A stretch of DNA of 61,931 bases, counting the filler, from Hausera hauseri (taxonomy: Eukaryota): assembly GCA_046269625.1 (NCBI GenBank). It is 10 parts of 10 records of this genome, joined end to end, with 100 filler letters (N's around TTAATTAATTAA, not from the genome) between each part and the next. Parts side by side here need not be neighbours in the genome. Positions count along the whole stretch, not along the records: positions 12,414 to 24,432 come from JBJURY010056662.1; positions 24,533 to 29,980 come from JBJURY010253403.1; 8 more parts are not named here. One strand, 5' to 3'. Each line of letters opens with the position of its first letter. The first letter of the stretch is position 1. A program made the position numbers and the translations under genes. A model generated the notes under the pieces. That model was not told the origin of the DNA. It made no database searches and saw only the letters and a list, made by a program, of their open reading frames with translations. Positions 1 to 47,869 of this stretch are shown here, piece by piece.

Positions 1-207
1 CTACAATAACTTCATGTATTTAACATAGTAAAATAACTTTAAAGCAAAACATCGTCAGTTTTAGCACACAATTAAGTGTTGTGATTGGGTTCCTGAGGCA
101 TGGGAAAGGTCTATAAAAAGCATGAAATTTGATTTGGCATGGCAGTATAAACCCTGTAATGGAAACAAACTAGCTTGCAACAACAACGTTTTCTTAGTCA
201 CATAACA

Positions 208-2581: not shown

Positions 2582-2970
2582 TTGGCTAAAATCCACGAGC
2601 CTGAAAATTGCCACAATATTATGCAGAAATACTTTAGCCATCTGTACAACAGGAATGATTATTGTATATACCCTACATGTGAGGTAGTGTGCCAGACCAA
2701 ATATGAAGACTTTTACAACGCCGATAAACAACACCTGATTTCATTCACCAAGTTGAAAAAACAAATATTCAATACCACTATGCCAATAATGACTTCCGTG
2801 TCTAAACAAAATCAAAGACGCAGTTCATACATGTATTGTTCATGCGCAATACACAATCCTCAGAACTGTCATAATACTATGAGCAGCTATTATGGATACA
2901 AATATGCTTAAGATGTGAGGCTGTATGCGATGGAGAATACATGCACTTTTTCGAAGATCATATTGCCCAT
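2582..2970 (+). pseudogene. Cys/His-rich ORF remnant with an internally duplicated motif, upstream of pPolB
   Basis: HEPENCHNIMQKYF...CEVVC recurs as HNPQNCHNTMSSYY...CEAVC. Function unknown. Confidence 0.3.
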
Positions 2971-3083
2971 TTGACAGACTTCAAGTCAAAGTCAAAGAAG
3001 GTCATCTTTAATGAGCAGCAGCCTGCTTTGCCAGCACAAACTGTTTTGTCAGCACATCCAGTTGTACAGCCTGCTTCGACAGC

Positions 3084-5785: not shown

Positions 5786-5910
5786 ATATCTTTATGACGT
5801 GTTGTATTTTTGGTGTTAATAAATCTTATACAAAATATCGTGTTGTCTACTTCATCAAGTAATGTGGGATATAAGATAAGGCCAAATAATTTCATAACAC
5901 ATTTATTTCG

Positions 5911-6010: not shown

Positions 6011-7173
6011 AATGCACATTTTGCTTAATTCGAAATATTGATTTTATGCCTATATAGTACATTTTCATGGAATAATTTTTATGCACATAGGGGTTTTCGA
6101 ATACAAAGAATCGATTTCCATCGTTGGATTTTTCGAATAGTTCGAAATTCGATATTCGAGCTCGAAAATCTTCGAATTTCAAAATTTCGATTCACGATTC
6201 GAGCTCGCCATGGTAGATTTCTATCTGTCCCCGCTCAATGTTGAATAGAATTTTGCTTCCTACGGCATAAAAAACATATTGAAATTATAGCCAATTTGCA
6301 CTTTCGATCGATATTAATCGATAACTAATTGATAAATTTAAATTCTAACGGCACATTCATATACTACACCGTGTTTGTGTTCGAATGCACCCGGTGCCGA
6401 GTGATAATCATCTATATTGGAAATATCGGAAATTCGATATTATTCATTTTTGCACACTTGCACACATACTTTTGCACTGCACTCCATACATCAAAGTGCA
6501 TCTCGATGTTCTCTATTTACCTGCACTTGACCCAGATTAATTCTGTCAATCCTACGCTGCCCAGTGACCAAAATGTGAAAAGTGAAAAAGTGCTCCTGCA
6601 CACCGATCAAGAAACATACTAATCTCGATTAATGCACTATTCGATATTACATCAAGTACTGCACACGCCAGTATATGTGCCATATTCATAGCATTAATTT
6701 AAAATTTATAGCGGAAAGGACTGTGGCGGTTCGGCCCCACTTGCGAATTATTCGAAAACCAATCAATAGATTTAAATTCTAACTGCACATTCACAGAGCC
6801 CGTCATGTGTGCTACCGATCGCACCCGGTCCCGAGTGCTAATTATCGATTTTAGATTTATCGGAAATCCAATATTATTGATTTTTGCACGCTTGCACATG
6901 TGCTGCACAACTGGAAAATGCACCAATCGATGTGCACTGACGTGCTCTATCGATTAGCAATTTGTTCCGATCGATTTGATGAATAGTGCACTGTGCAGCG
7001 ATCGATTTGTTAAAAGTGCAAAAATGTGCATAGCAACGGAGCCTAGCGGCACCGTTGCTAGGCACTTTTTGGATCGATAGTACACAGTGTGCACTATCGA
7101 TTGGCACATATGCAATATTGATTCGGTACACCCCTGGAGGGTGGGACCAAACCGCCATTTTCCCCCTACTACT
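6011..7173 (-). mobile_element. Terminal/subterminal region of a Polinton-like element inserted into the adenain gene of another Polinton
   Basis: Ends CCCCCTACTACT at 7173, homologous to 1205-1990. Contains a ~170-bp direct repeat at ~6333-6500 and ~6768-6940. The adenain reading frame is cut exactly at this point. Confidence 0.7.
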
Positions 7174-7410
7174 AACAATGACGGATAGTAAAATCCGAGA
7201 GGATCGAATATCCTGACGACGTTGGTCGGATGGTGGACGTACACAGCAATCTAATGTTCGCCCGGCAACGATGAAATGTGTGTATTGACAATGAAGTCGC
7301 CGACGCCAATTTGTCGTAAATCACGCGGCACACAGTTCAGTGGAAAAACGCCACGAAATTTCGCGCCCAAGAGCAGTTTTCCGTATTTACTGAGCTCGGT
7401 TGAGCTAAAT
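7174..7410 (-). pseudogene. Adenain-like (adenovirus-type) cysteine protease, N-terminal half, truncated by insertion
   Basis: Manual translation gives ELSKYGKLLLGAKFRGVFPLNCVPR...FIVNTHISSLPGEH*IAVYV...IFDPLGFYYP, matching the Polinton protease motifs FxGVF, IxNT, GxHW and FDSxG. Confidence 0.85.
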
Positions 7411-7488
7411 GTGAATTAAGTACAATAGTAATAGTAATAAATTACTTCATAGAACGACGAAGACGAAGTGAGACACAGCGGATTTTGT

Positions 7489-8728
7489 TTATACAATGAC
7501 GGTTCCGCTTTTTGTTATTTCAACTTCGGCATCAAATACACCTTAAATGTACATAACGGTATATTGCTTTAACGCTTTAGCAAAGTGAACCTCCAGTCGT
7601 AGGTTTCCCTGCTGGAGTAGTTGAGCATGCTCGACGTCATAGTCTGGAGCCAGGACGAAGGTGAAGAATGGATAGGTGGACTTGAACAAATCCATCGATA
7701 TGTCATTGTTGATGTTTTTGTTCAGCCAACCCATGTTGCGTACAATAGATTGCATATATGTGCAAACATAATCATTAGGCTCAAAATCTTGTTTGTACAT
7801 CTCAACGAAATCCGCATTCCAACCCCAAACTGATGTAATTTACATTGCTATGGGCAAACGTTTCCGAATCGGTTGTATAACTGCCCGTTTGTTGAACAGT
7901 CGTTTGAAATGTAAGGGGCACAAATTTCGGCAATCGCATGTCGCCATACAGTGCATGTTTGTAAAACGTAGTTGAACCTTTCGGTATGGTGTAAAAGACG
8001 AGTATCGGGTAACAGGCATTTTGCGTTTCCAAGCTTAAGCGATGTCCCATGAGCACAGATGGTTTTACCTTTACACGACGTACGTATAATCGTGCCTTGG
8101 TAATTTTCAGCATGAATTTAAGCTGTGCAACGGCAGTTTCCAAACAAAATACATTGTCGCTACGTTTTAGCCGAATCATGGCTTTAACATTGAGAAGTAG
8201 GTATTTCGGCTGATCGAAAAAATCAAAGTACAGCGGTTCACACATGGTAAGTTCTTTTGATTCTGCCACCCAGGCATGACGCTTTGCCGCTGTGGCATCG
8301 TATCCCATGGTTTTTGTGAAATGAGTCGTTATCGTGACTGTGCTGTAATTTAGATACATTTCAATTAGTGCTTTGATACTGTATAGACTGTTGTTGGCTT
8401 TGATTTTGACGCTGTTCAGAGTCAGTGAAGCCTCCTGGAACAGTGTGAGGAAAAGGTAATTGGCTGGTGTGACAGTGTTTGTTGCAGCGAGAACCGTTGA
8501 CGAATCCTTTTTAACAATGACTTTTACATAGATTAACGTATCGTTCAAATCCAGGTATTCATTGTACGAAGCCATAATGTTAAATTGAATGTCACTGTTA
8601 TCGTCCGTTGAAACCGAATCAACGGGGTAGATTTCTTCAAATGCCGCATTGTCAATAACAAGTTGTGGCGTCGCTTTGTCGAATATACACAATTCAGATT
8701 TTGCAGATACCATTTGTCTATTAATCAA
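7489..8728 (-). pseudogene. Major capsid protein (double jelly-roll, Polinton PY/hexon-like), frameshifted
   Basis: KSELCIFD..PQLVI..EEIYPV..IQFNI...YLDLNDTLIYVK; ARLYVRRVKV; LPKFV; C-terminal GNLRLEVHFAKAL..FDAEVEI (ORFs 7802-8728 and 7543-7800, read through to ~7489). Confidence 0.9.
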
Positions 8729-8770
8729 TCAATCGAAAATCGTACGACGACGACGTTTGTTTATAGTTGA

Positions 8771-9088
8771 TTAGATCGATGATGCTCTATGGCGTTTTCT
8801 CAAGCCACTGCCAGCGAATTGTTTTTTGACTGATTCAACGATCCGCGGTGCAGCGCTTTTTATTTCTGACAGAGTGTGTTCCTTCGGTGATGATAAAATT
8901 GATTTGTTTTCATATAGTACGTCCTCTGCTGTTTTTGCTGCCATATCTATAATACGCTTCAACACCGGAAATGCAAAACGTGTCAATGTACGCAACCGTC
9001 CAGAACCGTACTTTTTACCAACGAAATACGGCAGTTCACCGCCCTGATGGGGTTTACTGTAAATGGAAACGATTTCGGAATCAGTCAT
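8771..9088 (-). CDS. Small Polinton virion core protein with adenain-type GG/GxG cleavage motifs and an amphipathic helix
   Basis: HQGGELPYFVGKKYGSG followed by RTLTRFAFPVLKR; basic C-terminus GSGLRKRHR; lies just upstream of the MCP. Confidence 0.7.
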   Translation of the reverse strand: MTDSEIVSIYSKPHQGGELPYFVGKKYGSGRLRTLTRFAFPVLKRIIDMAAKTAEDVLYENKSILSSPKEHTLSEIKSAAPRIVESVKKQFAGSGLRKRHRASSI

Positions 9089-9101
9089 GTTGTTGTTGGA
9101 T

Positions 9102-9810
9102 TCAACAGAAATGAATAGTTAGACTGGTTGTGGTACCGTACGAAAATTCAACAAGGTAGCCCGCATCACATCGGATATTCACTTCAACATTTTTTATAGA
9201 TTTAGAAGCCACAGGTATGTACATTGGATTAACGAGCTTGATAGTAACATTGTCGCCGGCAGTATAGTTGCTGCTTTCCGTATAAATTGTACGGAGTAGC
9301 AGTATACGTACTTCACCGACCAAAATCGGTTCGGTGACGTTCACGTAAATATACATTTGACTTAGTCCCGTTTTCAGTTTGGGTTTAAGTGTTGCAACAT
9401 GTGCCGCCACCACCGCAGTCTTCGATGCTTCAAACCGCTGTTTTTCAAAACCCAATACCATGGCCAAAACTTTGTCCAATTAAATGTCAACAATATCCTT
9501 AGCCAGTTCAATTTTAATGTACCAATTTGCATCTGACTAGAAAACCTTAAATATCGCATTGTACTTTTGATTTGAAGAAGAAGAAAAGGGTTGACAGAGG
9601 ACAAGAATGTGTTTTGGTTTCAGTAACAGTCTTATTGTACGTTATATTCATACTACCTTTCAATGTCACCGGTGCGTAGAAAAAGTTAAATTTCGTCAAT
9701 GCAACCTCCCATTTTCCAGGTAAATCCAGAGAATTGTTCCAATCTACAACGTATTCACTGGCTGAATTGTTAGGACGAATCATCGGACAACTGTTTCTCG
9801 GCAACACCAT
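9102..9810 (-). pseudogene. Minor capsid protein (penton, PX-like) copy B, frameshifted
   Basis: N-term LPRNS..PNNSASEY..LDLPGKWEVALTKF; C-term MYIYVNVTEPILVG..LLRTI..PMYIPV..VEVNIR..G..LTIHF. Confidence 0.88.
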
Positions 9811-9867
9811 GTAAATACTTATGATCTCAATGATGATAATGATGATAGTAATGACGCACTTTATTTA

Positions 9868-10828
9868 TTATCGACGACGACGTCGGAAATGTAACGTCAA
9901 ATGTGTTGTTGACCCGAACAGAATTTTAATGGGTTCCCAAAATTTATCAAGCATATACACGGCAATACTGTACGCAATATTGTGAGACAATGATAAGTAC
10001 ATGGATCTGAACATAATAACGCGAACAGTTTCACCCGATGATGTTTTGTACGTGTCAGACAACAGTGTATTTGACAACAGTAGATCATCCAACAATGCTT
10101 TGATAGAATTCGCGTTGTGAAAAACCCAGATTCCGAGCCAAAAATTCATCGAAGGCAAAATATGTAACACTTTCATGTAGTATAATTGAAATATGACCAT
10201 CTGCGTTTATTTCACATGTCTTTACGGCTAATGCGGCCGTTTTCGTGACGTATTCACACAATTCCACTTCCGTTTCCATTAGTAAATCGTACGGTATAAT
10301 ACATGAGCAGAAGACTGATTCTGACTTAGTCCACTTTACAATAATATCAAATTCCGCATGGGATAAAAGGTACAATTTTTTACCAATTATAACATGTCCA
10401 CCTAGCCGTAGACGTTTTTTGTGTACATTGACTGATTGAAAACCCCATGCCTGAGAATCAGGTATAGATTTAAACTGCATTTCCATGGGATTTCGATGCA
10501 TTAGTTTCATACAGTAGTTTGAAAAATAAGCATAAACCGAAACATTTTCTCGCGAATAATTGCAAAGAACATATCGGTTATTGTGTCGGAATGTCCGCAA
10601 GCGACTTGAAATAAGGTTTGTTTCTTGTCTGGTAATGTAAATACCACTGTTCTGACGTATTGTCATTGGTGAAAATGTAAATATGAATTCCGTCAAAGCC
10701 ACTTCCTGTGCTCCGTGGCGTAAATCGGCCGGTTGGTTCAAGTGCACGGTAAACTGTTTAGCGGTATTGTCATTTTCGTCATGTTGTGATAAAGATCTGT
10801 TACTATCAAGTACCAAATGAGTGCTCAT
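9868..10828 (-). pseudogene. Minor capsid protein (penton, PX-like) copy A with a long insertion, frameshifted
   Basis: N-term HLVLDSNRS..NTAKQFTVHLNQPADL..EVALTEF; C-term MYLSL..IAVYMLD..GSTTHLTLHFRR. Confidence 0.75.
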
Positions 10829-11925
10829 TACTCAATCTGCGATGCAAAAATCCAACTCGATGTAGTTTATCCGTGCCACTTAACGATATATTGTTTATTC
10901 GAATCTTTGTCACGTGAACGTAGAAATTCCTGAATACGATACACAACAGGTTTTTTCCATAGTACTTGCAGTTCCTGTTCGTAAAATTGGCCACGTATAT
11001 CGTCACCATTTTCATCCTCTAAAACGTACATAACCGGACTTTGTTTTGTGTTGATTGCTGAAATTCGGAAAACCTCATCTCTCCAGTTCTGATTGAAATT
11101 CTTAATGAATGGTGCCATACTCAGTTTGAAATACGTACGTAATCACCGATTTTATATTTTTGGCGAAGTTTAATTGCCTGTCGTCCTCGTTGAGTTCGGC
11201 TATTTTGATAAAGCCACATGTCCAAGTCATCGATTACGTCAACCGGCCGCAATCCATTGATATCACGATGTGTCGAATGATTGTATGCATGAATAATATC
11301 CGGCAGTACATCTACCCAGCGTTTGTTGCCTTGCTTCTTAAATAATTTGTTTAGGCGAGCGCGCAATATTCGACTAAATCGTTCGAAAAGTGCCGCCTTG
11401 TATTGCGAAAACACCGAGTAGTGGTTTACGCCGAATCATTTCAAGACCTCTGTAACGTGGGCGTTGTAGAATTCCTTACCCAAATACGTTTGTAAATGCT
11501 TCGGCTGCTGCTGCTGCTGCTGTTCTTGTTGCATCAGCAGTGTCTGAACAGCGTCGGCAATCTCTTTACCGTATTTAGATTTCACGGCAATTGCACGTGC
11601 AAAACGACTAAACACATAAACACATATCGGTACGTACCGATACCCATCGTTGATGCTGGTGTATGAAATATTTCCATCAGATCCATTTGCCATACATTAT
11701 TTACACCGGCAGCACGGTATGCGCAAGTTGGAAACCGCTTTTTTATCGGTTTGTTTAGGCTGTTGCTAAATGTTTCCCGAGCCAACGTTGGGTTTGTTTC
11801 CGAGTCTTTTTGACAGTCTTTGCTAATTTGTCGACGCCAGTATAGCCGACGGGATGACGTGGGTCGAACCACCCGTAGCCCATCGTTGCCGCGGGTGTTG
11901 TCGTCGCCCGTTTTGCTGCTTCCAT
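10828..11925 (-). pseudogene. Polinton rve (c-)integrase with C-terminal chromodomain, frameshifted
   Basis: DPRHPVGYTG, WQMDL, YRY..VFSR, LQTxxGKEFYN, ERF, YNHSTH, YKIGDYVRIS, NWRDEVFRI, FYEQELQ, chromodomain YIVKWHG..SW. Confidence 0.93.
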
Positions 11926-12039
11926 TTCAACAATTTGAACGAAACTTAAATGAAAGATTCGGTAAACTAGTACAGAAAGATGAAAACCATGCATCTGTAT
12001 CGCCGAATCACCATATACTTACTGTCATTGTTTATACTA

Positions 12040-12313
12040 TCATGTTGTTGCAGAACCAATGAATCCACCCAGTAATGACGTGACAATAAGTAGAATTGCA
12101 CCAAGGAATCCGCCATCTTTTTGGTACATGACCGCCCGTTTCAATCGTTTACTACGGGCGTTGGCTAGGCCAATGAGTCGTTTTCGATACTTTAGTAAAT
12201 TCCGCTTTCCACTACCAATGCCAACGTGACCCACAACGATATTGTATAAAATTTCCATCAAATCGTCTACTACAAACTGTGAGAATGATCGCAGCATGTT
12301 TCGCTTATGTCTC
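12040..12313 (-). CDS. Small basic Polinton core protein ending in QxGGFL + hydrophobic tail (5'-truncated by contig end)
   Basis: EILYNIVVGHV...KYRKRL...QKDGGFLGAILLIVTSLLGG, a conserved Polinton small-protein pattern. Confidence 0.75.
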
Positions 12314-12445
12314 NNNNNNNNNNNNNNNNNNNNNNNNNNNNNNNNNNNNNNNNNNNNTTAATTAATTAANNNNNNNNNNNNNNNNNNNNNNNNNNNNNNN
12401 NNNNNNNNNNNNNCATAAGGTAATCTAAATTCAAGAGTAATTCTG

Positions 12446-13440
12446 TTATATATAAGGGGCGTGAGTTAAGGGCCACCCATATATATAACAAGTGTAAAAT
12501 AGAATTTTATCACTTTTTGCCAAAATCCTAACTGGTATATTTCCTACTAGTTCTTCCGGTATTACGGTTGCGGTAGTTAGAGTTGTACTCGGAATAGTGG
12601 ACGGTTTTCTTGTAGTGGTTGGGAACGGAAGCTTCCATATTCCACTTCTTGGACGGTATCCTCTTAAATAAGTGCTTGGCTGATTTGGACTGACCTTATA
12701 TAGGTCTAATTGTATCTCGTAACTGTACCCTTGGGGTATTTCACAGCACGGTTCTGGGTTCCATCGACTAATACCGCAATATTTAGCTGGCGCACTCGGT
12801 TTTTTAGATGATATAAATCGAACCGAGATCTGGTAGGATTCGGTTAAACTTGTTTTAGTTTTTATTTGAATACATGCATTTTTAAAATGCGTGGAAACTT
12901 CCATTTTATTTTCGCTTAGTAATTTAATTCGAGGGTACGTACTTTGAACTATGTCGGATAATTTTACGTCATCCGTTTGGACCTGCTTGGACATAGCTAT
13001 TTCGACCAATGGTTGTATCTCCGCTCGAATGACCTCGTAAGGGTAATAATACATGAGTATTACGTATCTGTATGATTGTCCGAAATCCAGTTCGCAACAT
13101 TGCTTATAATTTCCATATCGGAACTCGCAATCTCTTATCCTTCCATTGTTCGGATCAGTAAATTTAAATGATTTTTTATATATTTTCTAGTAGCTTTGTC
13201 AGTTTTGAACCAGATACAGGGCTTTCTTTTGTCTATGTCATATGCTTTTATTGTTTCTAAATTTTCCGCATCTTTTTGTCCTTCCAGACGTTGTTGTTCC
13301 TCTTTGTTTTTAGCTCCTCCTCCACTTTTGCTAATCCCATACACATCTGCTAAACTGGATTCACGATCGTCCCACCATTGTGCTTTAGTCTTAGGAGCGT
13401 AAGAGGCGATTTACGATAAGGCGATGACTATTTGCACATA
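12446..13440 (-). pseudogene. Post-integrase ORF: hydrophobic signal-like segment, Cys-rich domain, Thr/Pro-rich stalk
   Basis: PISYVQIVIALS..YAPKTKAQWWDD..DVYGISKSG; ACIQ..KYC..PCC; PTTTRKPSTIPSTTLTT. Homologous to 44460-45433. Confidence 0.6.
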
Positions 13441-14650
13441 TGATATTGGTCTGGTTACTATCGACGACGTTTTCTTTTCTTTATTGGTTTTGCTCGAACG
13501 CAAATTATCACGTTTGTCTGGTCTTATTTCCGTTCTAACTACTCTCTGAATTGATATGACCTCTTCCTTGCCGTTTTTATTTATATAAACTGTGGTTGGC
13601 GTAACCTTGGTAACTTCATAAGGTCCTCTGCCTGTTCTAGTAAGTTTGAGAGATGTGCCTTTCTTCGCCACTGGATAGTGTACGTAAACCCAGTTTCCTG
13701 GTTCTAAGTCGTGTGGTTTAGACTTCTTCTCGTATTGTTTCTTAAATTGTTCCTGGTATTCTTTAGATAATTCCTTGGCTATTTTCCAACACTTGTACAA
13801 TCTCAATTGTAATACCTCGACAAAATTCTGCTCCAAATCTTCCGTTTTATTTGTGTAGGGAATCAATCCTAGATCTGTAAGCAGTACAGCTTTTCTACCG
13901 TACATCATGTAAAACGGAGTGAATCCTGTCGCCATATGCGAGGTAGTATTGATGGCAAACTGTGTACCTTCTAAGAACTCATCACAATCTTTCTGGTCCT
14001 TTGCGACTACGGTCGATAAGATCCGTATAACTGTCGCGTTCATTCGTTCGACCATTCCATTACATTGGGGATGATAAGCTGTGGTAGTTAGTCGTTCAAT
14101 CTCAAAAATTTTTGTAATTTTGTCGAACAATTCGCTCATAAAGTTTCTCCCTCAATCTGTCAAAATTTGTTTAGGTGGTCCATATCTACAAATAATCTTC
14201 AGGACTACTACTTCTGCCAAGGTCTCGGCCTTTTGGTCTACTAATGTTACGAGCTCGACGAAATGAATCAGTCGATCTACGCAGGTCAAAATGTATTTGT
14301 TTTTCTTGTGAGTCGTCGGTAATGGTCCTACAATATCCATAGACATTGCTTGCATTGGTCTGTCAGGCACATTGATAGGTTTAAGCTCCGCTATGTAGTT
14401 TTCGCTTTTATTTGTTAGGTTGCACACACTTCACAATCATTTACCCAATTTCTCACGTCGATGTAGATGCTCGGTCAATAATATTTATTTAATATTCTTT
14501 CCAATGTCTTTTTCCATGACATGTGTCCGGCCAGATATAAATCATTTTCGGCCATGAACACTTCCACTCATAATCCTTTCGGTATGACAACTAATTTTCG
14601 TCCTTTATGTTCGTAGTACAACACATTTTCGTGATTCATATCTCCAACGA
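13411..14650 (-). pseudogene. pol: Gypsy integrase (HHCC remnant, DDE core, GPY)
   Basis: GHMSWKKT..WVNDCEVC; MDIVGPLP; ILTD; AYHPQCNGMVERMN; TGFTPF; GPYEV. Confidence 0.95.
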
Positions 14651-14859
14651 CGCAGTATTTGTGACCATATCGTCGTAGGTGTTTCCGTAATTGATGACCC
14701 CTTTGTGTTTTGTTGGTATTAACGAACTCTAAAATTTGTTATATGACTTTGTCTTTTCTTTGTTCGATAGAAATTTTCATTGCCTTATCTAGCGTAAGAG
14801 TCCGTTGTCTTTCTACTAAATCTTCAAGGTGGGCTATCCTCATTACCGTAACTGCGCTT

Positions 14860-16372
14860 GCTTTAGTTTTAAGTCTCGATAATGCATTGGAATGGATGTG
14901 TTTATTTCCGGGTTTGTATTGGAATTAGATATTGTAACGTGAAATCTCCTCTATCCATCTGTTAAGTCTACAGGTTGGGTTATTTGCCCTACCTTTTAAG
15001 GTGGTAACTGCCTTGTGATCGGTAACGATTACGATCTTTTGTCCATAGACGTATACATAAAAATGTTGCAAGGCTTCTTTCACCGCTACCGTTTCCAACT
15101 TCGTTACTGAAGAGTTCTTCTCGGCTTTCTTTAGAGACCGCCCTTCGTATGCGATCGCGTGTTCTTGCTCCTTGTCTTCACGTTTCTGAGCTAGCTCATA
15201 TCCGATACCTTCCTTACTGGCGTCTATTTTGATTATAAACGGTAGGTTGAAGTCAGGATATCTTATAACAGGTTCACTAGTTAAAATTTTTTTAATTTCA
15301 GCGAAAGCCTTTTGTTCGACATCGGTCCATTTCCATTTGATCCCTTTTTTAGTAAACGATACAAGCGTGCATTTATCTTTGCATTATCCGGTACATAAGT
15401 GGAATAATATCCACATAATCCTAACCAGTGCCTCAGTTCCTTTTGATTCTGGGGTTCCATGCAATGTGATATCTTACTTAATTGTGATTTATCTGGCTTC
15501 GACCCTCCTTCTCAAACTATATGTCTAAGGTAGGACACGGCATTCTAAGCCCATTTGCAATTCTTGGGATTCAGTTTCAATTCAGCTTGCTCCAATCTCA
15601 TGAGTGTACCTTCAATGTCTTTTAAATGTTTCTTTTCTATTTTCGAGGCAATCATGACGTAATCTAAATTGGCGAATGCGTGTTCCAGTATCATCAGCAT
15701 TTGGTTCATCATGAGGGTAACGATGGCTGGTCTGGTAGTTATCCCAAATGGCATAACGTTGAATTCGTATATGCCGTCGTGTGTCTTAAATGCCGTTTTA
15801 TAACGGTCTTCCTCCTCTATCTCTACTTGCCAGTATACGGATTGTAAATCGAAAGTGGTGAACCATTTAGCTCCCGAAAGTCTATGCAATGCTTCCTTTA
15901 CCGATGGCAATGGGAAGGAGTCTTTTATTATAAGTGTGTTTAGCGTTCGACAGTCGATACAAAATCGGTGCTTAGCGGTGTCTTTCTTCTTAACATTGAG
16001 GATAGATGAATACCAAGATCTATAGCTTGGTCTGATTATGTCAGCCTTTAACATCCGTTCAACTTCCTTAGTTATTTCCGGCCTTAACGAGTGTGGAGGA
16101 GGGTACAATTTGGGCATCTTTTGATCTTCCAAATCTATTTCATCGTTAGAACCAGGCTTCTTCTTAAGTGGGATTGTGAGTCTTAAGGTTTTGGCTCGGT
16201 CAATATCCTCTTCATCTTTTGCGATAACCGAGCTGTAACGAAAAAGTAAGTCGTAAAATCGGGGGGGGGAATTCGGCATCCTTATACGGTTTGTCTTCGA
16301 TCGTAATTGATGAAACTCTATACGTGTGCCCCAAAGTGGTATTAGCGTACAGTTTAATTGGAGTTGGTGCAT
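14860..16372 (-). pseudogene. pol: Gypsy reverse transcriptase and RNase H, decayed
   Basis: RFCIDCRTLN, DSFPLP, FTTFDLQSVYWQV, KTAF, VMPFG, degenerate YxDD (NLDY), KLNPKNC; RH IDAS..GIG..IAY.GRSL..AEKN..VTDHKA. Confidence 0.95.
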
Positions 16373-17159
16373 TATTCGCCATTCTAATTGGTACGCGACC
16401 CGTCGATACTCTGGTCAAAATGTTATTGGTCGGACTGAGAGATTCTTTTGGCTCAAAATTTACCGGCTGGTCGTCATCTTGATGTATTTGAGCGTATATT
16501 AATATTTCGGTTCTGGGTGGCACGTTTTCGTCTACGGGAATCCACACTTCTCCGAACTTTCTATCTTTAGTAGTTTTGACTCCTTTTATTGGGTTAAGTT
16601 CTATCAGCTTGCCTGCATTGACGTCGATTGCTATATTGGGTAGTTGTCTCAATAAATCGCATCCTAATACTACATCATCCGTTAGTTGCTCCATTACTAA
16701 AAATTCCTGGTGAAAAGACTGTCCCATTATGTGAATTTCTGGTTTCCATCGGGATTTCCTTTTTGATGATTGTCTGAAGGTTCCGATGCTTCCTGGATCT
16801 GTCGTAGGAGGCGGGTACAATTGTCCCCATAGAAATTGTGGTATTGAATTGTATTTGAACAGTGATATTTCGGATCCTGTGTCTATCAGCGCATATACTT
16901 CCCAATCTTCTAATCTAATTTTTGCAAATGGCCTTCCTTCATTTATGGTACCATAATAGTTTGGTGCCACCTGAAGGCGTCGGATCGTGGACACTTTGTA
17001 CCCGTTAATGGTAACATCCGTGGTTCCAACTGGCTGGTCAATTAGTTGTCTTAATTCTTCAATTGGATATAGTCCATTAGTCGCACCATTCGTGTTTCCT
17101 ATTCCTTGGTTCCTTAACTGGCGTTTGAACGTCTGGGTTCTGGAGATTGTGCGCTTCAC
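16212..17159 (-). CDS. pol: Retropepsin aspartic protease followed by a degenerate dUTPase-like spacer
   Basis: ALIDTGSEIS and DVVLGCDLL; downstream VPPRTE..VPIRMAN..IKLY..TTLG pattern. Confidence 0.9.
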   Translation of the reverse strand: MKRTISRTQTFKRQLRNQGIGNTNGATNGLYPIEELRQLIDQPVGTTDVTINGYKVSTIRRLQVAPNYYGTINEGRPFAKIRLEDWEVYALIDTGSEISLFKYNSIPQFLWGQLYPPPTTDPGSIGTFRQSSKRKSRWKPEIHIMGQSFHQEFLVMEQLTDDVVLGCDLLRQLPNIAIDVNAGKLIELNPIKGVKTTKDRKFGEVWIPVDENVPPRTEILIYAQIHQDDDQPVNFEPKESLSPTNNILTRVSTGRVPIRMANNAPTPIKLYANTTLGHTYRVSSITIEDKPYKDAEFPPPILRLTFSLQLGYRKR

Positions 17160-19438
17160 GGCTTCTCATAAATATTGATTGCGTTTCGTTTGGTTTAGGT
17201 ACTCTAGACGAGTAAATTATACCGTGATCGTCGACTACCGATCGACAATGTGGGGCAGTCGTTCTTTCCGTTTCGTCGATCTTACGCAATATCCCGTATG
17301 GTTTCGTTCCCTCGTAATGATTCTCCAAATTGAATGGCTTCCGATAGATATCTGTCTGGCACGAGCTCATAGATTGTATCTCACAATCTTCATATGTAGG
17401 TACCGTCGGCGGTAATATTGGTAACGGCAGTCTCATCACAGAGTAATTTTTGTGCCGGTTTGATCTAGAGATGACGTCCCCTCCCTTAGGCTCGTAATTA
17501 TCGGAGTTATTTTTTCGTTTCTTACTGTCTAGGAACTTTTGCCTACAATTGAATATGTACCTCTTACGTTTTCGGTTATGGTAGCCAACATGTCGCTCCA
17601 CATCTGTTTTCCATCTATTCTCTTCATAGGCTTTTAAGAACGTGCCGAAAGGCGTAATAATAGCCGTCAAAATTTTGCACGAAAATCCTGTTAAGGTGAA
17701 TATCTCATATCCATTTATGACTGCTTGTATTATAGCTTTTACCAGTTGAATTAAGAAGTACATCGCTTGAAATTTCGACACGACCTGCCCGAATATTAGG
17801 AATCTTCCCCAAATTTTGTACAATATTTCCGTAGTTACCTTTTTATAATAGCCGACGCCAAGTAATGACTCCCATTTCGCTTGGTAGCGCGAGTACTGTA
17901 ATATTGTATGCATTGATCGATTTAGTTCGTGCGTACGCTGACGAGGGAAGGCGAGAAACTGTCTGAACGCTGCTACTTCTTTTGGTCGGTAAATACCCTT
18001 CGTGGCTAAATCTTGAAATTTATCGTCGGTTATTCCTTTTATTAAGTTTGTCCCTGTCAACTTGGCAGGTGGTGCAATAATACCGCAGTTCGGTAAACTT
18101 ACCCAGTCGGTTTCGCTTTGTCTAAACATTGGCTCACCTAGACTGGTTTTACAGTCTCTTAAGATTGTCGGTTGAGTGGAATTAGCCAATAGTACCCTGG
18201 AAATCGGTGTTACTAATCCCGGTACGACCTGGTGTATTACTGGAAGTTCTTGTATACATCTCTTCTCTTCCACATTAATCGGTACGTCTTTCTTCTTGCA
18301 CTCATAAGTCAGTAAGACTTCTGCGGTTACCCGTCCAAAAACACCTTCCTTCATTGGAATTATTGGTGAGGTCAACTCGGGATTGGCATATATTAGAGCC
18401 AGTTTAGTTCTCATGATTTTCAAATCCAACTTGCAGCCGTTCGTTATCATTTTATGGTATAGCTCGGCCATTCCTGCTTGTCCATTATAATAGAAATAAT
18501 CGTCTCTGTTTTTCAAGTAATCTTTAATCCAACTGTCCTGAGTCTCGAGGTTGAACGTTCTGGCGTTTATTTCCGTCTCCGCGACAAAAAATGCTTCATA
18601 GTTGGTAGCATACATTATAACGTCGCATCTTGTAAGTACATCTTTAATCACCAACCTTAGTCCATGGGTATCCGAGATCAGTATTGTCGCTGTGGACTGT
18701 TCGGCTACATTTTCTCGTGTTTTCGAATTAGTTTCCATGTTACTTATGTATCGTTTTCCTTTCGTCTCGTTGAACTTAAGTTTTTTAATTCTGATAAAAT
18801 TGCAATTGGTCTTTTCTGGCGGTTCCCAAATTACCACGGGACTTCGGAAGGGGCACGTGCCATCCTGAATGTGATATTTGTGGTTTTCTGTGTAAAGCTT
18901 TGTAACGCTATGGAACATTACCTTTTGTAAGCGCATCTCGGTTTCGTAAAAGTCTACTACTACGATGTTTGACTCTAATCCCTTTCCCGTGTCGTACTCT
19001 GAACTATTACAATCCCCGGTATGCATGTCTAGTCTTTCTTACGTGACTTTACACACTGATTATTTTTCCTTCCTGCACTTCCAGTTCCATGCTGTCCCAT
19101 TTTATCCTTCCTGTCACTCTAGCTTGCTTACAATGATGACGTTCTAAATTCATCGGAATTGACGGAGTCGTGGGCTTGATTATTGAAGAGTGTCCATGTA
19201 CCAGTCCATAATGGAAAATGCTGCGAGATCGTCGCAACATACATTCTACTCCATCCCAGGTAACTAGTTCGCGCTGTTGATATAGCATATAATTTTTCTC
19301 CTTCGTTTCTAATTTATGTGACCTCGCGTCTTCGCATATTTCTAAGTCAATTAGTGAATATTTTTGGCCAAGTCTAAATTTATCACAATCATATACTGTA
19401 ACTGCACCCATTTGTCTTATTAACATTATCCTGGTCAA
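17077..19438 (-). CDS. Chuvirus-like (Jingchuvirales-type, class III/gB-like) envelope glycoprotein, one break near 19030-19050
   Basis: VYDC..YSLIDLEIC..LYQ..C..R..HYG..HSS..C...TG; GDC..Y; WEP..C; LY...C...LALI..P; G..AEV...C; C.QELPV..TP.SRVL..C; LATKGIY..FP; C-terminal hydrophobic helices WGRFLIFG..IKAII..GY..TGFS..LTAI. This follows the motif order of chuviral glycoproteins. Confidence 0.88.
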
Positions 19439-19456
19439 AAATTTGATTAGCCAGTT

Positions 19457-22400
19457 CTACTCATCTACTCTGGCATTTCCAATTACATTTCGTAGAAGAT
19501 CCACGAATCTATTGTTACCGCAGAAGAATCTATTTTGATCTTTCTCTTCCCTTTTGAATAACTTGGACCAACTCACTTCTCGAGGTAGTTGCCTGGCAGT
19601 CTTTCTTGCCAAGCTAGTAGCCTTGTTGAATTGGTTGGTTTTGATGGCCAGGTATAACAACAATTTTCTTAATTTTTCTATGACATTTTCTACCATAATC
19701 TTCTCGATTATCATTTCATCGCTCAAGGTACTTCTAGATAATTTACATCGGCGGCCTTTCATGGTCTTGGCAGCATTGAATATGGCCTTCTCTTTTTCAT
19801 CTAATGTCACTGCCGAGACTAGAGTGGTTTACTATTCGTATCAAACTTTTCATAAGTTCGCTCAGTTCCTCGTGGTCCGCATTGCAGGTTGGTATGGACA
19901 TTTGTCTCAGCTCTTTGATTAGGGCTCCATTATAGTCGATTTCTTCTTGTATCTTCCGTGGTCTGCCGACAGGACGCTTCTGTTTTGTTGCAGTAGGTAC
20001 GCTGCTATTGATCGGTACTAAATTTTTATCATATTGTTCCTTATCTTCGTCTGTCTGTAGGTACTTGAAGTATACTGCTGCGTCCCGAACTCCTATAATT
20101 CGTCCTACCCACTGTTCCTCTTTACCCTTTCTTATATCTTCTTCTTTTGTTTCTTTGATAGGAATGGTTACAACAATCCGGTTGGCTTCACCTGGAATAA
20201 TGCTGACTTCTATTAATAGCTCCGTTTCCTCTAGTATTCTCCATCTAAAATAGAGTCTGTAGCTTAACTCTTGTTTATATCCATTATTTTTTATCCGCAA
20301 TATTACGTCTTCCACGCAGGAGTGCGTAGTGAACTCGTGTTTCTTCTCGACCATTCAGTCAGATACTATCTTTACTGGGATTGTCTCCTCTAACTTTGCC
20401 TTTAAAATCCTAGCATATTTTTTAAGTAAAAGCTTAGGTACCGTGCTAGATATCGTACCTTCGCTAGCTAATTTAATTAGAGTGGGGACCAATAGCCTTA
20501 ATGGATTTTCCGTGAGGTTTACTTCGATCAACTGAATTAAATCTTTCTCAGCATTTACTGGGTCTAGGAGCATTCCCACGTTAAATCTTTGGTCCGAAGA
20601 ATATACCTCCATTTCATCCAATTGTATGGGAGTTTTCGGGTTTTCGGCAATCATTGCGTCTAAATATTTCTCCCATTCTGTTTCATTCTCGTTATTCGGA
20701 AGTTCATAGTCTCTTGTCGGTGCATCGGTTGGTCTATCCACACCTGCGGTCCATATAGTTTTTCTGAGTTCTTCTAGTTTCTGTTGCATTTTGACCATTT
20801 TCGTCGTTCGGAAACAGCGCCCATTAGCAGAGGTTTGACGTAGCAGTGTTAACAACGAACATAATTCTTCAGCCGGAATTAATCCTTGTTCTTGATAGCC
20901 TGTTAGTTTGGCGGTGACGTTTTTTGCCACCTTTGCACGAATTGTGACTTATCAGCCTTTTCTGCCTCTGTAAGGGCGTATTTGTTTTTATAAACTTCGA
21001 GTTCCCTAACTAGTTCGTCTAATCTCATTGCTCTCTGTTTAGTCTTAATGCAAGTTTCTTCGGCTTGATACATCTGCTGCAACAATTGTCTTAGTTTCTC
21101 GTCACTAATTTCTGCCATTTCTGCCTTCAATAGCGCTAATTCATACATCTCGTTAATACTGTTTGCATCTGGGTATATCGCATCTAGTAATTTTTTTACA
21201 AATTTAATCTCTTCGAAGCTAAGTTGGTGGTCGTTCTTTATTTTAATAAGTTCGGTATGATGCCTTTGATCCGTTCCATCCATCCATCTTTATGGGTGGT
21301 GTAAGAATTTCACCACTTCTTCAACAACTGACCGATATGCGGGACAAAAGTCCAGGATTTCAGGATCTCGAATCGGGATTTCCTCGATAGGTTTGGTTGT
21401 CAAATGTTGGATTTCTTTTAGGCGGATATCTCTTAATCTCGGATAAAAATCGCAAGTTGCATTTCTTTCCGCATGAAGTTTGTTTCTTCGCTCATCTTAT
21501 ATATATCATTTAGTATTGTCTTTTCATGTTTTTTTCCATAAAGTTTAATTGACGTAATGCCTCGAACTGGGTTCGGATGTCAACTTCTACCTTCATAGTA
21601 TCTAGGTTTCGGGCGTCTTCCTCTAATCGTTTCTTTACTCTAGGTTCGCTCTCCGGAAATTCTTTTTTTCGATTGTTGATTAATTCACTCAACCTGGTTA
21701 TTACTTTGGATTATTCGTTCAACTGATTAGTGATTTATGGCGTTCTCAATTTCGTTTTGTCTAACCTTTTGCAAGCGTCCTCTAATTCGTTATTCGGAAC
21801 TTTAATAAAATCGATGACCCGACGGGCGTAGTCGAACTCGTCTTTATATTAGTCAAACTCAAGAATACAATCCATAATTATTTTCTGTGTTTCGCCGTTA
21901 TTTGGATACATAATTATATTCCCCAGACTATATATTTGGGATCTTTTTTCAGCCTCAATTCTGATACGACTTTCCAGACTTGTATACTGTTTTGATGCCG
22001 TAGAAGCGGCCTTTATCATTTCCATCAAGGATGTAATATTTATGGAATCTATGCTTAACATATCTAGATCAATTGCTTCTCGTTCCTTGGCCGGTTTTTC
22101 CTTAAGTCGTTTGACTATTGCAAATTTCGGATTGGCTTCTAATGCAGTTAATAGAGACTGGGCTTGGTTGACTCTAGCTTCAATATCTTGGGTAGTTTTA
22201 TCCCACGTCTCCGGAATTTTCGTCTCAGTTTTAGTCCACCGTTCTAATTCGCGTTTCCATTGAAATAGTGTTTCTTTTGCCACCTCTTTAGGCTGATCTA
22301 AGTCAACAGTTTCACTTAGTTTCCCTTCACCATATAGCTTAATCTTTTTACATGATCTCTCTACAAACTGTTGTTCCTTGCCAGAAATATCCACTTGTTC

Positions 22401-23057
22401 ACTTATGGCTTTGAATTTTTCTAGATTTTGTTATACTACCTCTGGGTTGAGACAATTCATCCTCATTCTTTTTAATTCTTCGGCGTTTTTCCATGAGCGT
22501 CTGATTTTCCACTTCTTAGGATCGAGTTTCTCCTCTTGTTATATTTCCTCTTCGATAGCAGGTAAGGGACATACATCATTTATCTTATTTACAGATTTCG
22601 TCAGCTCACAATTTCGCCGGGCGTAGCTAAATTAATTTCCGGACCGTTCGAGGTGCACTTTATGTCGCTTTCTAATGCGATTTCGGTTTCTCTCTTTGTG
22701 TTAGGCTTCTCCTTAAATATTGGGGATCTCAAACGATCTCAGTGATAGACTACGGACTCTATTCTTGGTAATTTTAAGTATGAGAGGTTCTAAAAATTCT
22801 TCTCCATCGTCGGTCTCGGCCTCCTTGGTTACCCTTTTTATAGTACACTCGGGGTCTACATCTAAATCTACCTTATTCGGAGTCTCAGGTTTTTCTGTTT
22901 CGATTAACTCTTTGTTTGTCGTAGGAACGTTCTTTTTCTGTGCCATATCATTCAGCCTTGGTAGGGCAATGGAATGTTCATATTCTGTTTCTGGTTCGCG
23001 TATACCGTGATAAATGTCCAATAATCGTAGCTTATGCTCGTACTCATTTCTAGCCAC
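19457..23057 (-). pseudogene. Series of fragmented unknown ORFs (charged, coiled-coil-like; AT-hook KRPVGRPRK) between gag and the glycoprotein
   Basis: Near-continuous minus-strand coding in shifting frames. 20930-20355 and 20354-19797 are in frame across one stop. Confidence 0.6.
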
Positions 23058-23079
23058 TAAAACTTTAGTGTCTTTAGTA

Positions 23080-24373
23080 TCATGTTGGGCCTTTAAAAAG
23101 TGTTGTAAGTCTTGTACCGTAAATTGCTTCTAAGTTTTTATTTTTAATTACATTAGTTTTACTAGGTTCCACAAACGAGACACTTCGCGAGTTTGGACAG
23201 GATCTCGCTATATGTCCTTCTATTCCGCATGTAGATTGCGTTGTCATTTCTCCCGATCCTTTGTCGGCCATCTTCGTTCACTGTAGATTTCGATCTACTC
23301 GGATTTCTATTTTAGCCCTGCCGCACCGGGGCTTGCCTACTATCCACATTTTGGCGCTTATCATAATTCCGACTGTCATTCTGTCGATTAAAATTTTTGG
23401 AACCGTCTAGGCGTTTATCCGTATGATAGTTTGATTTACTAGAAAAACTATTTCTACTATTATCAAAATTCTGGTTGCTGTATCGATAATTCATGCGATT
23501 ATAATTACCGTTCTTGTTCCGATCGCCATAATTCCTGTTAAATCGTCTATCATTTCTATTATTCCGATTTTTATCGCTTCGGTCACTTCGATCATTGTAT
23601 CTATCATTTCTGTCGCTGTTTCTGGCATATCTATCCAATGACATTTCTAGGTCCTGAGCTAATTGTAATATCATATCAAAATTCTCCGGGCGTGCTAGAA
23701 TCAGTTGCTTTACTATGTCTTTAGACCAAATATCGTTTATTAACTGCGTCATCATCATGACGTCTAAATCTGGAGGGCTTGCCTTTTCTGCGGCTTCACG
23801 TTCTGATTCGTTTTTAGCCTTGGCTAAGTTTGCTATTCTTAAGGTGCTCACATAACTGTTCGTCAATTTTTTTTAAAGCAAAAGCGAATTGGGTTATCGA
23901 TTCAGCCTTTCGTTGAACTCTATTCTGAAAAACCATAAGTTTTTGTTGCGGCGTTACAGTCGATAATAATTTTCGGTTCAAGGCTCCTACCAGGGAGGAC
24001 CAATTTTTCTTCTCATCATCGGTGTGCTCGCTATAGGCATCAGAGGCCAAATTCTTTAAATATAACGACAGGCGTTAGCTGGAAGTCCAGCACATTCTGC
24101 GTGCAACTCATATGTTCTTAAGAATTCATTGAGTCCGTCCGGGTCTCCGTCGTACGCCAGCAGATTTAGGGAATCAAATGTGGAAATGTCTAACTTCTGA
24201 GCAACTGCTTGATTTTCAACCATATTTTCAACATTTATTAAATTTTGCTTAACTATCTTACGAGGTCTAATTCTCTTATCAGGAACTGTAAATTCCAAGG
24301 GTTGTTCAACAGCGTTTAAGTCGATTGGCTCAGTATTAGCTAAGTTTGTTTCAGATAAAGTACGTCTACTCAA
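23080..24373 (-). pseudogene. gag: Gag (capsid, Asn/Arg/Asp-rich region, degenerate CCHC knuckle)
   Basis: YDGD..EFLRTYE; WSSLV..L; RVQRKAESITQFA..L; CGIEGHIARSC. Confidence 0.85.
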
Positions 24374-24730
24374 CGTCTCACCTTGTCTATATATTCTATT
24401 ACGCGTTTCGCGAAGTGTAATATTTTCTTTACNNNNNNNNNNNNNNNNNNNNNNNNNNNNNNNNNNNNNNNNNNNNTTAATTAATTAANNNNNNNNNNNN
24501 NNNNNNNNNNNNNNNNNNNNNNNNNNNNNNNNATGCTCATAATTCGCTTAAGTGAACAATTATTACATACCACCATTATCCCTACATACACTTCACCATT
24601 AGTACAAGCTCACTTACTTAGACAATTGTATAATCTTTTGTCGAATTCATTGTATATCGAAGATGCTGACAATATAAATCATAATATTATTGAATTAAAT
24701 TTTAGTTAATTCTATCTATATTTAGATCCT

Positions 24731-25822
24731 CCAGAATGCATGTATTGCAGAGTAGTTCTCAGCGAAGTGTACAGATTAACACCATGCCTGCATATGGTTT
24801 GTCTATTTTGTATAGAGCGAATACGATCGCAAGCCCATCCTACACCTTACTGCCCTGTTTGTACATATGAAATCAAATATTGTATTCATCATGATGCATA
24901 TCCATCTGATGCTGACCAATCATTACTAGATGCACCAACCTTCGATGTTGTGGAACCCACGGATCATACTACCTACTATTACACCTGGAATGTATCAACT
25001 CCTTTTTCCATTCCAAATTTCCAATTACACATGTGCTGCCTATGCCAAAAACCTAATAGAATAGCTTATCAATTTAGTTGTTGTAACGCTGAGTACTGTG
25101 CCCATTGCTATCAATTAGAATCCCATCATCGATATTTAATCTGTAGCATATGTTATTTTTGCCCTCAATTCATCTACTCGTATTTTCATCATCCTAGAAG
25201 AGCCCTCCTTACTATTACTAATACGCCAATTCCTCAAATACTTCCAACGAGATACTTTCGACTAGAACAACAAGCATCAGTTCGAATTGAATTCCCAATT
25301 CATAAATTCGACCCTTCTACAATAACTAGACCACCACCAATTACTTTTCAAACACCTTTACCTCACATCAATGTTATGACTCTTTTACGCCAACCGTCTT
25401 CAATACCACATCCACGTTACCATCCTGAACAAATTACTAGATCATTGCCCGAGTTGCCAATACCTACACCTACAATAATACCTACACCCATTATTTCTTA
25501 CAGTCCACCACTACCAGTATCCCTGCAGGAAGATTGGTTCCCTGTCTTCAATAAATGCCCAATCGATCTTATATCTGATCTAGCCCCTCCTGACTTATGG
25601 GCAACACTACAATCTCACTACTACGACCAACTTCCTACCTACGAATGTACTATATGTCTTACCGAAAGAATAACAGTAGTTCAATTCCAATGTAACCACA
25701 AATTATGCGCAACCCGTTTCAACAAACTTCGATCTCAATCCCTCAAATCGATCGATCCAGAATATGCTCTTCAAATGACTTTTCAAAATGGTATCTCATG
25801 TCCATACTGTCGAGAACCATAA
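24731..25822 (+). CDS. Triple RING-finger protein (putative E3 ligase), probably the last exon of a spliced gene
   Basis: After acceptor TATATTTAG: ECMYC..PCLHMVCLFC..CPVC; CCLC..CC..YCAHC..CSIC; ECTIC..CNHKLC..CPYCR, with a Pro-rich linker. Open for 360 aa. Confidence 0.8.
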   Translation, partial: PECMYCRVVLSEVYRLTPCLHMVCLFCIERIRSQAHPTPYCPVCTYEIKYCIHHDAYPSDADQSLLDAPTFDVVEPTDHTTYYYTWNVSTPFSIPNFQLHMCCLCQKPNRIAYQFSCCNAEYCAHCYQLESHHRYLICSICYFCPQFIYSYFHHPRRALLTITNTPIPQILPTRYFRLEQQASVRIEFPIHKFDPSTITRPPPITFQTPLPHINVMTLLRQPSSIPHPRYHPEQITRSLPELPIPTPTIIPTPIISYSPPLPVSLQEDWFPVFNKCPIDLISDLAPPDLWATLQSHYYDQLPTYECTICLTERITVVQFQCNHKLCATRFNKLRSQSLKSIDPEYALQMTFQNGISCPYCREP

Positions 25823-29156: not shown

Positions 29157-29426
29157 GTGGAATGCCCGATATGTTTTGAAGAATTGGGCTTGAAATATGC
29201 TCTGTTCAGGTGTACACATTACATGTGTACACGGTGTGCGGATACGTGGATAGCAAAACGACAGAACTGCCCTTTCTGTCGCCGTAAGGTGACCATTTAT
29301 CAATACTGGAATGCCATAGTTGTCGTACTGCCCGAAGAGGATGAAGAAGAACCAATGGTGATCAACGAAGATCCGAACGACTTATACGTAGTGGGTCCCA
29401 ATGGACTCGTGTATATGGCAATTTAA
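29157..29426 (+). CDS. Small RING-HC protein exon with acidic tail
   Basis: ECPIC..RCTHYMCTRC..W..CPFCRR, preceded by AG acceptors (TTATAG, TTCAG). Confidence 0.8.
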   Translation: MECPICFEELGLKYALFRCTHYMCTRCADTWIAKRQNCPFCRRKVTIYQYWNAIVVVLPEEDEEEPMVINEDPNDLYVVGPNGLVYMAI

Positions 29427-29607
29427 TTTAATAAAATATTCATTTTATGGCCTTGATGAAGAACAATAGTAGATTATGGGCGGCCCAACGGAATTAGTAA
29501 TAGGAGATAGGGAGAAAATAATTTGATTATAGTATCAATAACAGCATAATGTTTATCTTAGAAAAGAATAAATCGAAGAATTAAGTGAATTATATTGATT
29601 TCAGGTT

Positions 29608-29840
29608 GCATCATCTGTAAAAGATTTCCAGAAACTTGGGATGAAGAGGAGAATCCCTGTCCCCTATATTATTTAGTGGAGAAATTAATTTAACCAGAAG
29701 ACCTATTCGAGTGCGGTCATTGTGGGGAAGAGGCTAACTTAGGCTTAATGACGTTGTATGAAGATTACCGTTTATTATGTCCTGTTTGCGCTCTGACGTT
29801 GAATGATATAGAAGAAATTAACAAATTGATTAACTTATGA
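29608..29840 (+). pseudogene. Cys-rich zinc-binding ORF remnant
   Basis: Manual translation CIICKR..CPLY..*..ECGHCGE..LCPVC after acceptor TTTCAG. Confidence 0.4.
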
Positions 29841-43780: not shown

Positions 43781-43807
43781 TCATTGAACACGCCCACGAC
43801 CGCGGCA

Positions 43808-47862: not shown

Positions 47863-47869
47863 TTTATCA

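Follow-up and report, generated by a model that had tools for sequence, protein, structure and literature searches.

A 12,019-bp contig (positions 12414-24432) within a 61,931-nucleotide stretch of DNA from the Hausera hauseri assembly GCA_046269625.1—hereafter the window, meaning the whole stretch analysed—carries a dead copy of a Ty3/Gypsy retroelement with a class III, gB-like fusion glycoprotein (G) between gag and pol. We consider it quite probable that this copy, likely of flatworm origin and likely Burro-like in its GAG-ENV-POL order, descends from elements that made Gag, an unassigned region X, G, Pol and a second surface protein as one polyprotein. The GAG-ENV-POL layout is already known, and the window copy is a divergent, dead member of a known group.

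Gene content of the window copy

The window joins ten separate contigs through spacers of 44 N, a 12-base linker and a further 44 N. Positions 12414-24432 make up exactly one of these contigs, and the contigs adjoining it are not its genomic neighbours. A first-pass annotation, made from the sequence alone, had taken this interval as an element; its limits proved to be the two ends of the assembled contig. One contig end falls inside gag and the other just behind the last open reading frame (ORF). Long terminal repeats (LTRs) and a target-site duplication are not visible because the contig ends first, and we infer the label ‘LTR element’ from the genes. All long open frames lie on the minus strand, on which Pfam matches bore out the annotated order of gag, unknown coding sequence, G, protease-reverse transcriptase-RNase H-integrase (PR-RT-RH-IN) and a further ORF. 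The features are as follows:

23083-24430, minus strand: gag in several broken frames, with a capsid-like region, a low-complexity N/R/D stretch and a degenerate CCHC knuckle; 5' end cut by the contig end
19457-23082, minus strand: region X, ~1,200 broken codons rich in E/K/R/Q, recognised by open-frame coverage and strand skew
19403-19456, minus strand: decayed internal signal-peptide-like stretch directly before the start of G, sharing its frame with the last X segment, one stop codon apart
17077-19402, minus strand: class III (gB-like, Monjiviricetes-type) fusion glycoprotein G, with ectodomain, membrane region (about 17650-17790) and cytoplasmic tail; one frame break near 19050
17052-17072, minus strand: YPx3L motif (given at 17069), late-domain-like or a Tyr-Pro protease site, in the linker from G tail to protease
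16215-17165, minus strand: protease frame (RVP, E 1.9e-6), DTG motif at 16883
13450-16260, minus strand: RT, RNase H and integrase (zinc finger, core, GPY motif near 13626), matching RVT_1, RT_RNaseH_2, Integrase_H2C2 and rve
13402-13446, minus strand: second hydrophobic, signal-like stretch in the integrase frame, behind the integrase C-terminus
12449-13401, minus strand: further coding region, a linker followed by a Cys-rich ORF (12449-13186), with a homologue behind the integrase on another contig
43741-45433, plus strand: 3' part of a diverged family member (integrase, linker, further ORF) on a separate contig

Pol displays the order PR-RT-RH-IN, a Ty3/Gypsy feature. RT and RNase H are of Gypsy type, with matches to PF17919 and PF17917, the integrase contains the GPY motif, and the best PDB match of the RT is Ty3 RT (E 1.9e-29), all in line with the Ty3/Gypsy assignment of the first pass. 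No Pao-type domain (Peptidase_A17, DUF1759, DUF5641) was matched by Pfam in the element frames scanned. Pol contains seven stops and three frame changes in 1,127 codons, the YxDD motif of RT is lost, and the copy is dead.

The annotated likeness of G to chuvirus-type, class III glycoproteins was likewise confirmed. PF24664 (Monjiviricetes_fusion) matched in two frames, at 19052-19456 (profile positions 6-123, E 1e-9) and at 17080-19038 (profile positions 151-607 of 653, E 1.9e-41), and the long G frame measures 653 codons from stop to stop. In the ESM Atlas, G fell with PF24664 clusters (first hit 0.95), followed by rhabdovirus G and herpes gB, while a PDB profile search built on 96 G relatives returned herpesvirus gB in all 33 matches at E up to 1 (best 0.002). 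Folding of the single sequence reached a predicted local distance difference test score (pLDDT) of only 35. An alignment-based model of residues 1-479 of the long G frame had a mean pLDDT of 86 and a 48-residue central helix; with this model, every Foldseek row listed to rank 45 was a herpes gB (best E 2.8e-4), and baculovirus GP64 came at rank 49. Taken together, these matches give good support to a class III fold of G, with the reservation that the model is a partial monomer.

Matches to gag were weak (Retrotrans_gag at 23817-24074, E 0.016; zf-CCHC at about 23191-23232, E 0.008; both from Pfam), and in a search among 14 proteins the window gag matched the gag part of a relative, P0075 (E 1.6e-5). 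Region X is clearly coding: open stretches of at least 100 aa cover 76% of its 3,626 bp, compared with a mean of 1% and a maximum of 19% in shuffled sequences (n=200), which agrees with the ~3.6 kb of unknown coding sequence annotated between gag and G. It yielded no Pfam match at E <0.001, no PHROGs match at E 0.01 and no usable ESM Atlas or PDB match, and contains one YPxL-like motif at 21445. The CCHC knuckle lies about 1,270 codons before G in the window copy, as opposed to 234-626 residues in the relatives, where it was found at that distance in five of nine checked.

Strand skew, GC, A content and CpG ratio differ little among gag, X, G, pol and the last ORF, which is what a single element should show. 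The observed/expected CpG ratio ranges from 1.06 to 1.32 across the element and is depleted nowhere, so that the decay carries no methylation signature. From a public sequencing run (X1), 18,047 contigs match the 12-kb element at an identity of at least 85%, of which 882 are at 99% or more, 2,439 at 95-99%, 8,232 at 90-95% and 6,494 below 90%; they cover 30 of 30 bins, G and pol alike. The listed public holders of the stretch include no RNA data set. So many diverged pieces point to a large family that includes G. One 432-base X1 contig covers the G-protease boundary (17029-17460) with zero differences, and other X1 copies vary in length within some frame-change zones of the window copy. Within the window, the diverged member on the 43741-45433 contig has an integrase 79% identical and a last ORF 30% identical (E 4e-29) to those of 12414-24432. 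With its composition uniform, G covered by diverged X1 copies, and RT and G co-inherited (see below), contig 12414-24432 is a dead copy of a many-copy family and not a nested insertion.

Relatives and the likely ancestral polyprotein

A full HMMER search with G returned 424 relatives at E up to 0.001, the best 150 of which were listed; among these, the closest were long polyproteins. In the best 10 of the 424, a protease follows G in the same chain in eight cases (E up to 0.001) and, at E 0.0018, in a ninth; the tenth stops at G, with a weak Bcl-2 match ahead of it. A scan of 18 long G matches (E 0.001) found ten with G and then protease, two with G after integrase-region domains and six with neither. 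G continues through RT in eight relatives, and a single chain can be followed from a signal-like stretch through ectodomain, membrane anchor, tail, protease, RT and RNase H to integrase. Just before the YDC/FDC start (the first G motif), a hydrophobic stretch is present in 12 of 12 relatives listed, at the position that the decayed stretch 19403-19456 occupies in the window copy. Identity of the relatives to the window copy is about 30% in G and 40-46% in RT. Viral contigs searched with G, RT and integrase contained no relative. A metagenome scan gave 19 Gypsy RT loci, with a gag, X or G match in none of the seven listed, and an integrase search gave 66 proteins, none with PF24664; these proteins served as tree background.

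Trees of RT and G led to the same proteins. The window RT grouped with P0074, P0068, P0071, P0217 and P0218 (Shimodaira-Hasegawa-like approximate likelihood-ratio test, SH-aLRT, 91; long branch) in a quick IQ-TREE analysis of 69 rows, from which rows with fewer than 200 aligned residues had been dropped. These five, which are members or cluster mates of G-bearing polyproteins, also ranked as its five best matches by BLAST among the long proteins searched. In a FastTree analysis of 91 rows (61 of 151 matches dropped for short alignments), the window G fell together with all 12 G-then-protease rows and two others (support 82), with the ~650-aa stand-alone glycoproteins falling elsewhere; P0082 and P0090 lay outside the window's nearest group in both trees. 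Since RT and G point to the same relatives, G and pol were likely inherited together for a long time. The place of the window G among retroelement polyproteins of the known GAG-ENV-POL kind means that it was not newly captured from a chuvirus. An independent lineage, as proposed in the first pass, is not supported.

Among P0067, P0069, P0071-P0073, P0076 and P0217, several have between two and seven protease-like repeats following G, in some cases also beyond the integrase. P0068 is an animal-type retroelement polyprotein deposited under a bacterial metagenome bin, likely by contamination. P0147 joins immunoglobulin domains to a PF24664 glycoprotein, and in P0135 G is followed by an RNase H-like match.

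On these sequence grounds, a single membrane-spanning polyprotein is the likely ancestral state, well supported because in nine of the ten closest G relatives the frame stays open from G into protease and the RT falls with the same elements. The overlap of G and protease reported in the first pass was found again, at 17077-17165 (89 bases), and the single Gag-X-G-Pol ancestor proposed alongside it is upheld as likely. The protease frame is devoid of a Met across the 94 codons upstream of the catalytic motif and includes the motif found in the relatives' G-protease linker; combined with the signal-like stretch in the X frame, this would mean that neither G nor protease could be made alone.

Established rules for membrane proteins would predict Gag-X to be cytosolic and anchored by the signal helix, G to be lumenal, and Pol to be cytosolic on the Env tail. 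Gag-X would be made in the cytosol, whereupon the internal signal stretch would thread G into the endoplasmic reticulum. Host signal peptidase would free the N-terminus of G, leaving Gag-X on its membrane anchor, and a single membrane pass of G would bring the chain back to the cytosol. Protease, RT, RNase H and integrase would then stay attached to the Env tail, at the membrane where budding takes place, until the element protease cut them free. A YPxL-like motif in the tail may recruit ALIX/ESCRT for budding, and the second signal stretch, after the integrase, would export a second Cys-rich surface protein, perhaps for attachment. The outcome would be enveloped particles that pass from one host cell to another. 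The window copy itself is capable of none of these steps.

Several observations weigh against this reconstruction. The signal and anchor stretches are only weakly hydrophobic in the window copy (peaks 1.3-1.6), with two adjacent peaks, so that the single pass is deduced from the relatives and from the need for a cytosolic Pol. The G model is a partial monomer that lacks the first ~120 residues of the mature protein, and its Foldseek TM-scores to gB are low (0.15-0.31). The suggested RT phylogeny did place the element with env-pol polyproteins, but the tree lacked BEL/Pao rows and named references; in both trees the window sits on a long branch, and the supports of 91 and 82 are below the starred level. 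No LTR, primer-binding site, target-site duplication or long direct repeat occurs within contig 12414-24432. X1 is the only public run containing the stretch (share 0.46) and may be the sample it came from; its summed depth does not amount to a copy number, and among the X1 pieces listed none bridges the X-G boundary. Profile scores of the last ORF against the post-integrase domains of relatives lie within the shuffled range. Finally, a one-to-one output of Gag, Env and Pol is odd for particle assembly, and no source of a Gag excess is seen.

The stoichiometry would be eased if G and Pol had once occupied two frames, with a programmed ribosomal frameshift at the 17077-17165 overlap linking them, so that Gag-X-G outnumbered Pol. 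Ty3/Gypsy elements commonly use frameshifting, and both the 89 overlapping bases and a protease frame without its own Met would suit it. We nonetheless consider this unlikely: G runs into protease in one frame in nine of the ten closest relatives, the window copy has many other frame breaks, and X1 copies differ in length inside some of the frame-change zones, as expected of lesions. Less likely again is that the host co-opted G, in a fusion or antiviral role, and thereby kept its frame long while gag and pol decayed. The 653 codons without a stop, and a single break in 586 codons versus 10 in 1,127 in pol, are what such a role would leave; the first pass, too, had held G (649 aa unbroken) to be better preserved than its neighbours. 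However, the difference in breaks was chosen after the fact (P 0.067, or 0.14 with signal and tail included), loss of conserved columns was as frequent as in RT (57 of 93 kept in G, 57 of 90 in RT), and a frame break cuts the long frame off from the signal and the N-terminal part. Better preservation of G than of pol at conserved positions is thus not supported.

That G is a separate, chuvirus-derived endogenous viral element, inserted into or mis-assembled with a Gypsy element without env, strikes us as the most improbable of these accounts. PF24664 includes viral glycoproteins, viral members predominate in two of the three best Atlas clusters, and the first, short-word protein search with G found no relative. 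Yet G groups with retroelement polyproteins rather than with the ~650-aa stand-alone proteins, RT and G share their relatives, composition is uniform, and diverged copies cover G as well as pol, one contig spanning the G-protease boundary; a separate G is already largely refuted.

The linker motif and the post-integrase module

Of the 11 relatives' linkers between G tail and protease, 10 contain Tyr-Pro and six the full YPxL or YPx3L. The latter count compares with a shuffle mean of 0.53 and was equalled in none of 2,000 shuffles, with the qualification that the relatives are not independent of one another. Of 31 stand-alone G tails, which no protease follows, just two have YPxL/YPx3L (shuffle mean 0.2). 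From the Tyr-Pro motif to the protease catalytic motif, the distance varies among linkers between 28 and 88 residues. We take the YPxL-like motif to resemble an ALIX-binding late domain. For this step alone, a cleavage site of the element's own protease is a less favoured, though sizeable, alternative to a budding signal. Aromatic-Pro sites flank retroviral proteases, and Tyr-Pro is found in 10 linkers but the full YPxL/YPx3L in just six of them, as a cleavage site might have it. The spacing, by contrast, is more variable than expected for a protease N-terminus, and the two stand-alone tails carry the motif with no protease to release.

Regarding the proposed second surface protein, the last ORF (12449-13186) is a 246-aa open frame composed of two similar halves (internal repeat E 9e-4) with a Thr-rich end. 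In the related copy on the other contig, a hydrophobic stretch also follows the integrase, at about 44470-44515 (+), and leads to an ORF that is Cys-rich, internally repeated and Thr-rich at its end, like that of the window copy. All six relatives that reach well past the integrase have two or more hydrophobic stretches behind it, arranged as a second signal-like stretch and, beyond a domain with Cys residues, another membrane stretch. The last ORF gave no usable Pfam, PHROG, ESM Atlas or PDB match, and since its profile match to the relatives' domains is not significant, the two are linked by position and build only. A fibronectin type III fold would be suggested by a likeness of motifs, the profile comparison having stayed within the shuffled range. 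From its place and composition, the last ORF is likely the ectodomain of a second surface protein.

Literature searches covering listings and part of the article texts found no description of the linker motif or of the post-integrase module, though one may already be in print. Tentatively, and with clearly less confidence than in the polyprotein itself, the lineage may embody a full enveloped-virus design within one repeatedly membrane-crossing polyprotein, with a class III fusogen and, behind the integrase, a separate attachment protein as its two surface proteins, Pol held on the Env tail, and a budding signal on that tail instead of on Gag. The window copy would then represent a separate branch of deep origin, carrying a 1,200-residue cargo of its own. 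As a dead copy with a known layout, it changes little by itself; what it contributes is a divergent branch of a group that has been little studied and whose envelope, capsid and enzymes all derive from a single chain. Should the tail motif act as a late domain and the protein behind the integrase serve in attachment, budding and entry would follow a plan unlike those of retroviruses and insect errantiviruses. These two readings are short, testable predictions for planarian biology.

Known elements of similar layout and the surrounding contigs

An envelope gene between gag and pol is not the novel layout it was first taken for. Planarian Burro elements, with env in frame between gag and pol, were described in 2019 (Arkhipova and Yushenova, PMC6431247), and GAG-ENV-POL order has been reported in several clades, with Chuviridae-like glycoproteins next to gypsy pol (Chary and Hayashi, eLife 2026, PMC13524379). 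The comparisons that follow draw on parts of these and the further reports cited.

Burro / GYPSM1, giant gypsy-like LTR retrotransposons of planarians, share with our element a retrotrans_gag motif, CCHC knuckles and a long cargo region; an env in frame between gag and protease with mononegavirus glycoprotein matches, followed by PR-RT-RH-IN (a continuity that is reconstructed in the window copy); and many copies, decayed ones among them (PMC6431247). Close relatives of the window G carry matches of Bcl-2-like (P0070) and ankyrin (P0217) type, domains named for Burro, the former being a Burro mark (PMC6431247). Region X, unlike Burro, has no BIR, MATH, Bcl-2, ankyrin, RING or dUTPase match in Pfam, a search whose sensitivity is lowered by decay; because these cargo domains were not found, we call the element Burro-like and do not file it as Burro itself. 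From gag to integrase the window copy measures ~11 kb, whereas Burro, from a planarian host, has an ORF of 4,873 aa, an internal region of up to 25 kb and a length of >30 kb (PMC6431247). The window copy also has one protease domain, whereas several relatives have two or more. The likeness was judged by the published description, not by direct sequence comparison. In the parts of PMC6884822 and PMC8532177 consulted, Burro is mentioned without its structure.

Elements of Nematoda, Bryozoa and Platyhelminthes are reported to have only gB-type ENV, in the order GAG-ENV-POL (PMC13524379). Among those close to ours are the ‘ancient errantiviruses’ of the Platyhelminthes C1a group, with an ENV of HSV/gB type (HSV, herpes simplex virus): they share a Ty3/gypsy pol, an ENV before pol and homology of that ENV to Chuviridae-like glycoproteins, with nine flatworm and 10 bryozoan elements listed (PMC13524379). 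The window copy shows those features of this gB-type group that were examined, namely an env between gag and pol, a gB-like class III ENV, and membrane stretches on either side of the G ectodomain (signal-like before, anchor after). By eye and unscored, domain I-II of the window G and its relatives resembles six Schmidtea mediterranea C1a ENV rows and is unlike ten bryozoan rows of the eLife supplement (PMC13524379). The published elements are intact, often with LTRs, whereas the window copy is dead and cut by contig ends. The main text of PMC13524379 does not contain the words polyprotein, late domain, ALIX, fibronectin or Burro, and the parts consulted describe neither a gag-env spacer of 3.6 kb nor a surface protein behind the integrase. 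We infer that the env of Burro is the same thing as the gB-type ENV of flatworms.

Nematode endogenous retroviruses (Sacco et al. 2022, J Gen Virol 103:1739, via PMC13524379) are also Metaviridae with a glycoprotein of RNA-virus type before pol. They differ from our element in their nematode hosts. Their gag-env-pro-pol is said to form a continuous frame. The Anakin elements (Dezordi et al. 2020, PMC7642597) carry a chuviral glycoprotein of the same Pfam family, but on a BEL/Pao backbone and with env after the integrase. P0084, the sole match with a BEL-type DUF5641 domain, lies in another part of the G tree. Troyka elements were rejected as candidates, none of those described in the consulted part of PMC12440569 encoding an envelope.

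The source DNA of the window looks like repeat-rich animal DNA, because its other contigs hold decayed mobile elements and intron-free fragments of host genes. Contig 39878-45433 is a mosaic of element and host mRNA pieces: directly next to the 3' part of the diverged family member (integrase from about 43810, +) lies a decayed MEKK4-like gene free of introns, at 41430-43259 (-), with further kinase fragments below it, and a glycosyl-transferase-4-like fragment lies at 39880-40377 (-). Two other, distant Gypsy-type RT fragments are located at 36824-37414 and 51212-51904 (-). Decayed Polinton-like fragments, several of them copies 75-90% identical to one another, occupy 1-5910, 6011-12313, 45534-50987 and 56881-61931, with a weak DNA_pol_B_2 match at 4315-4839; their other genes are named tentatively. 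A 370-aa frame with RING-finger matches spans 24710-25819 (+), and further decayed RING-like motifs lie at about 29200-29800 on the same contig. A tandem repeat with a 52-base period occurs at 156-568.

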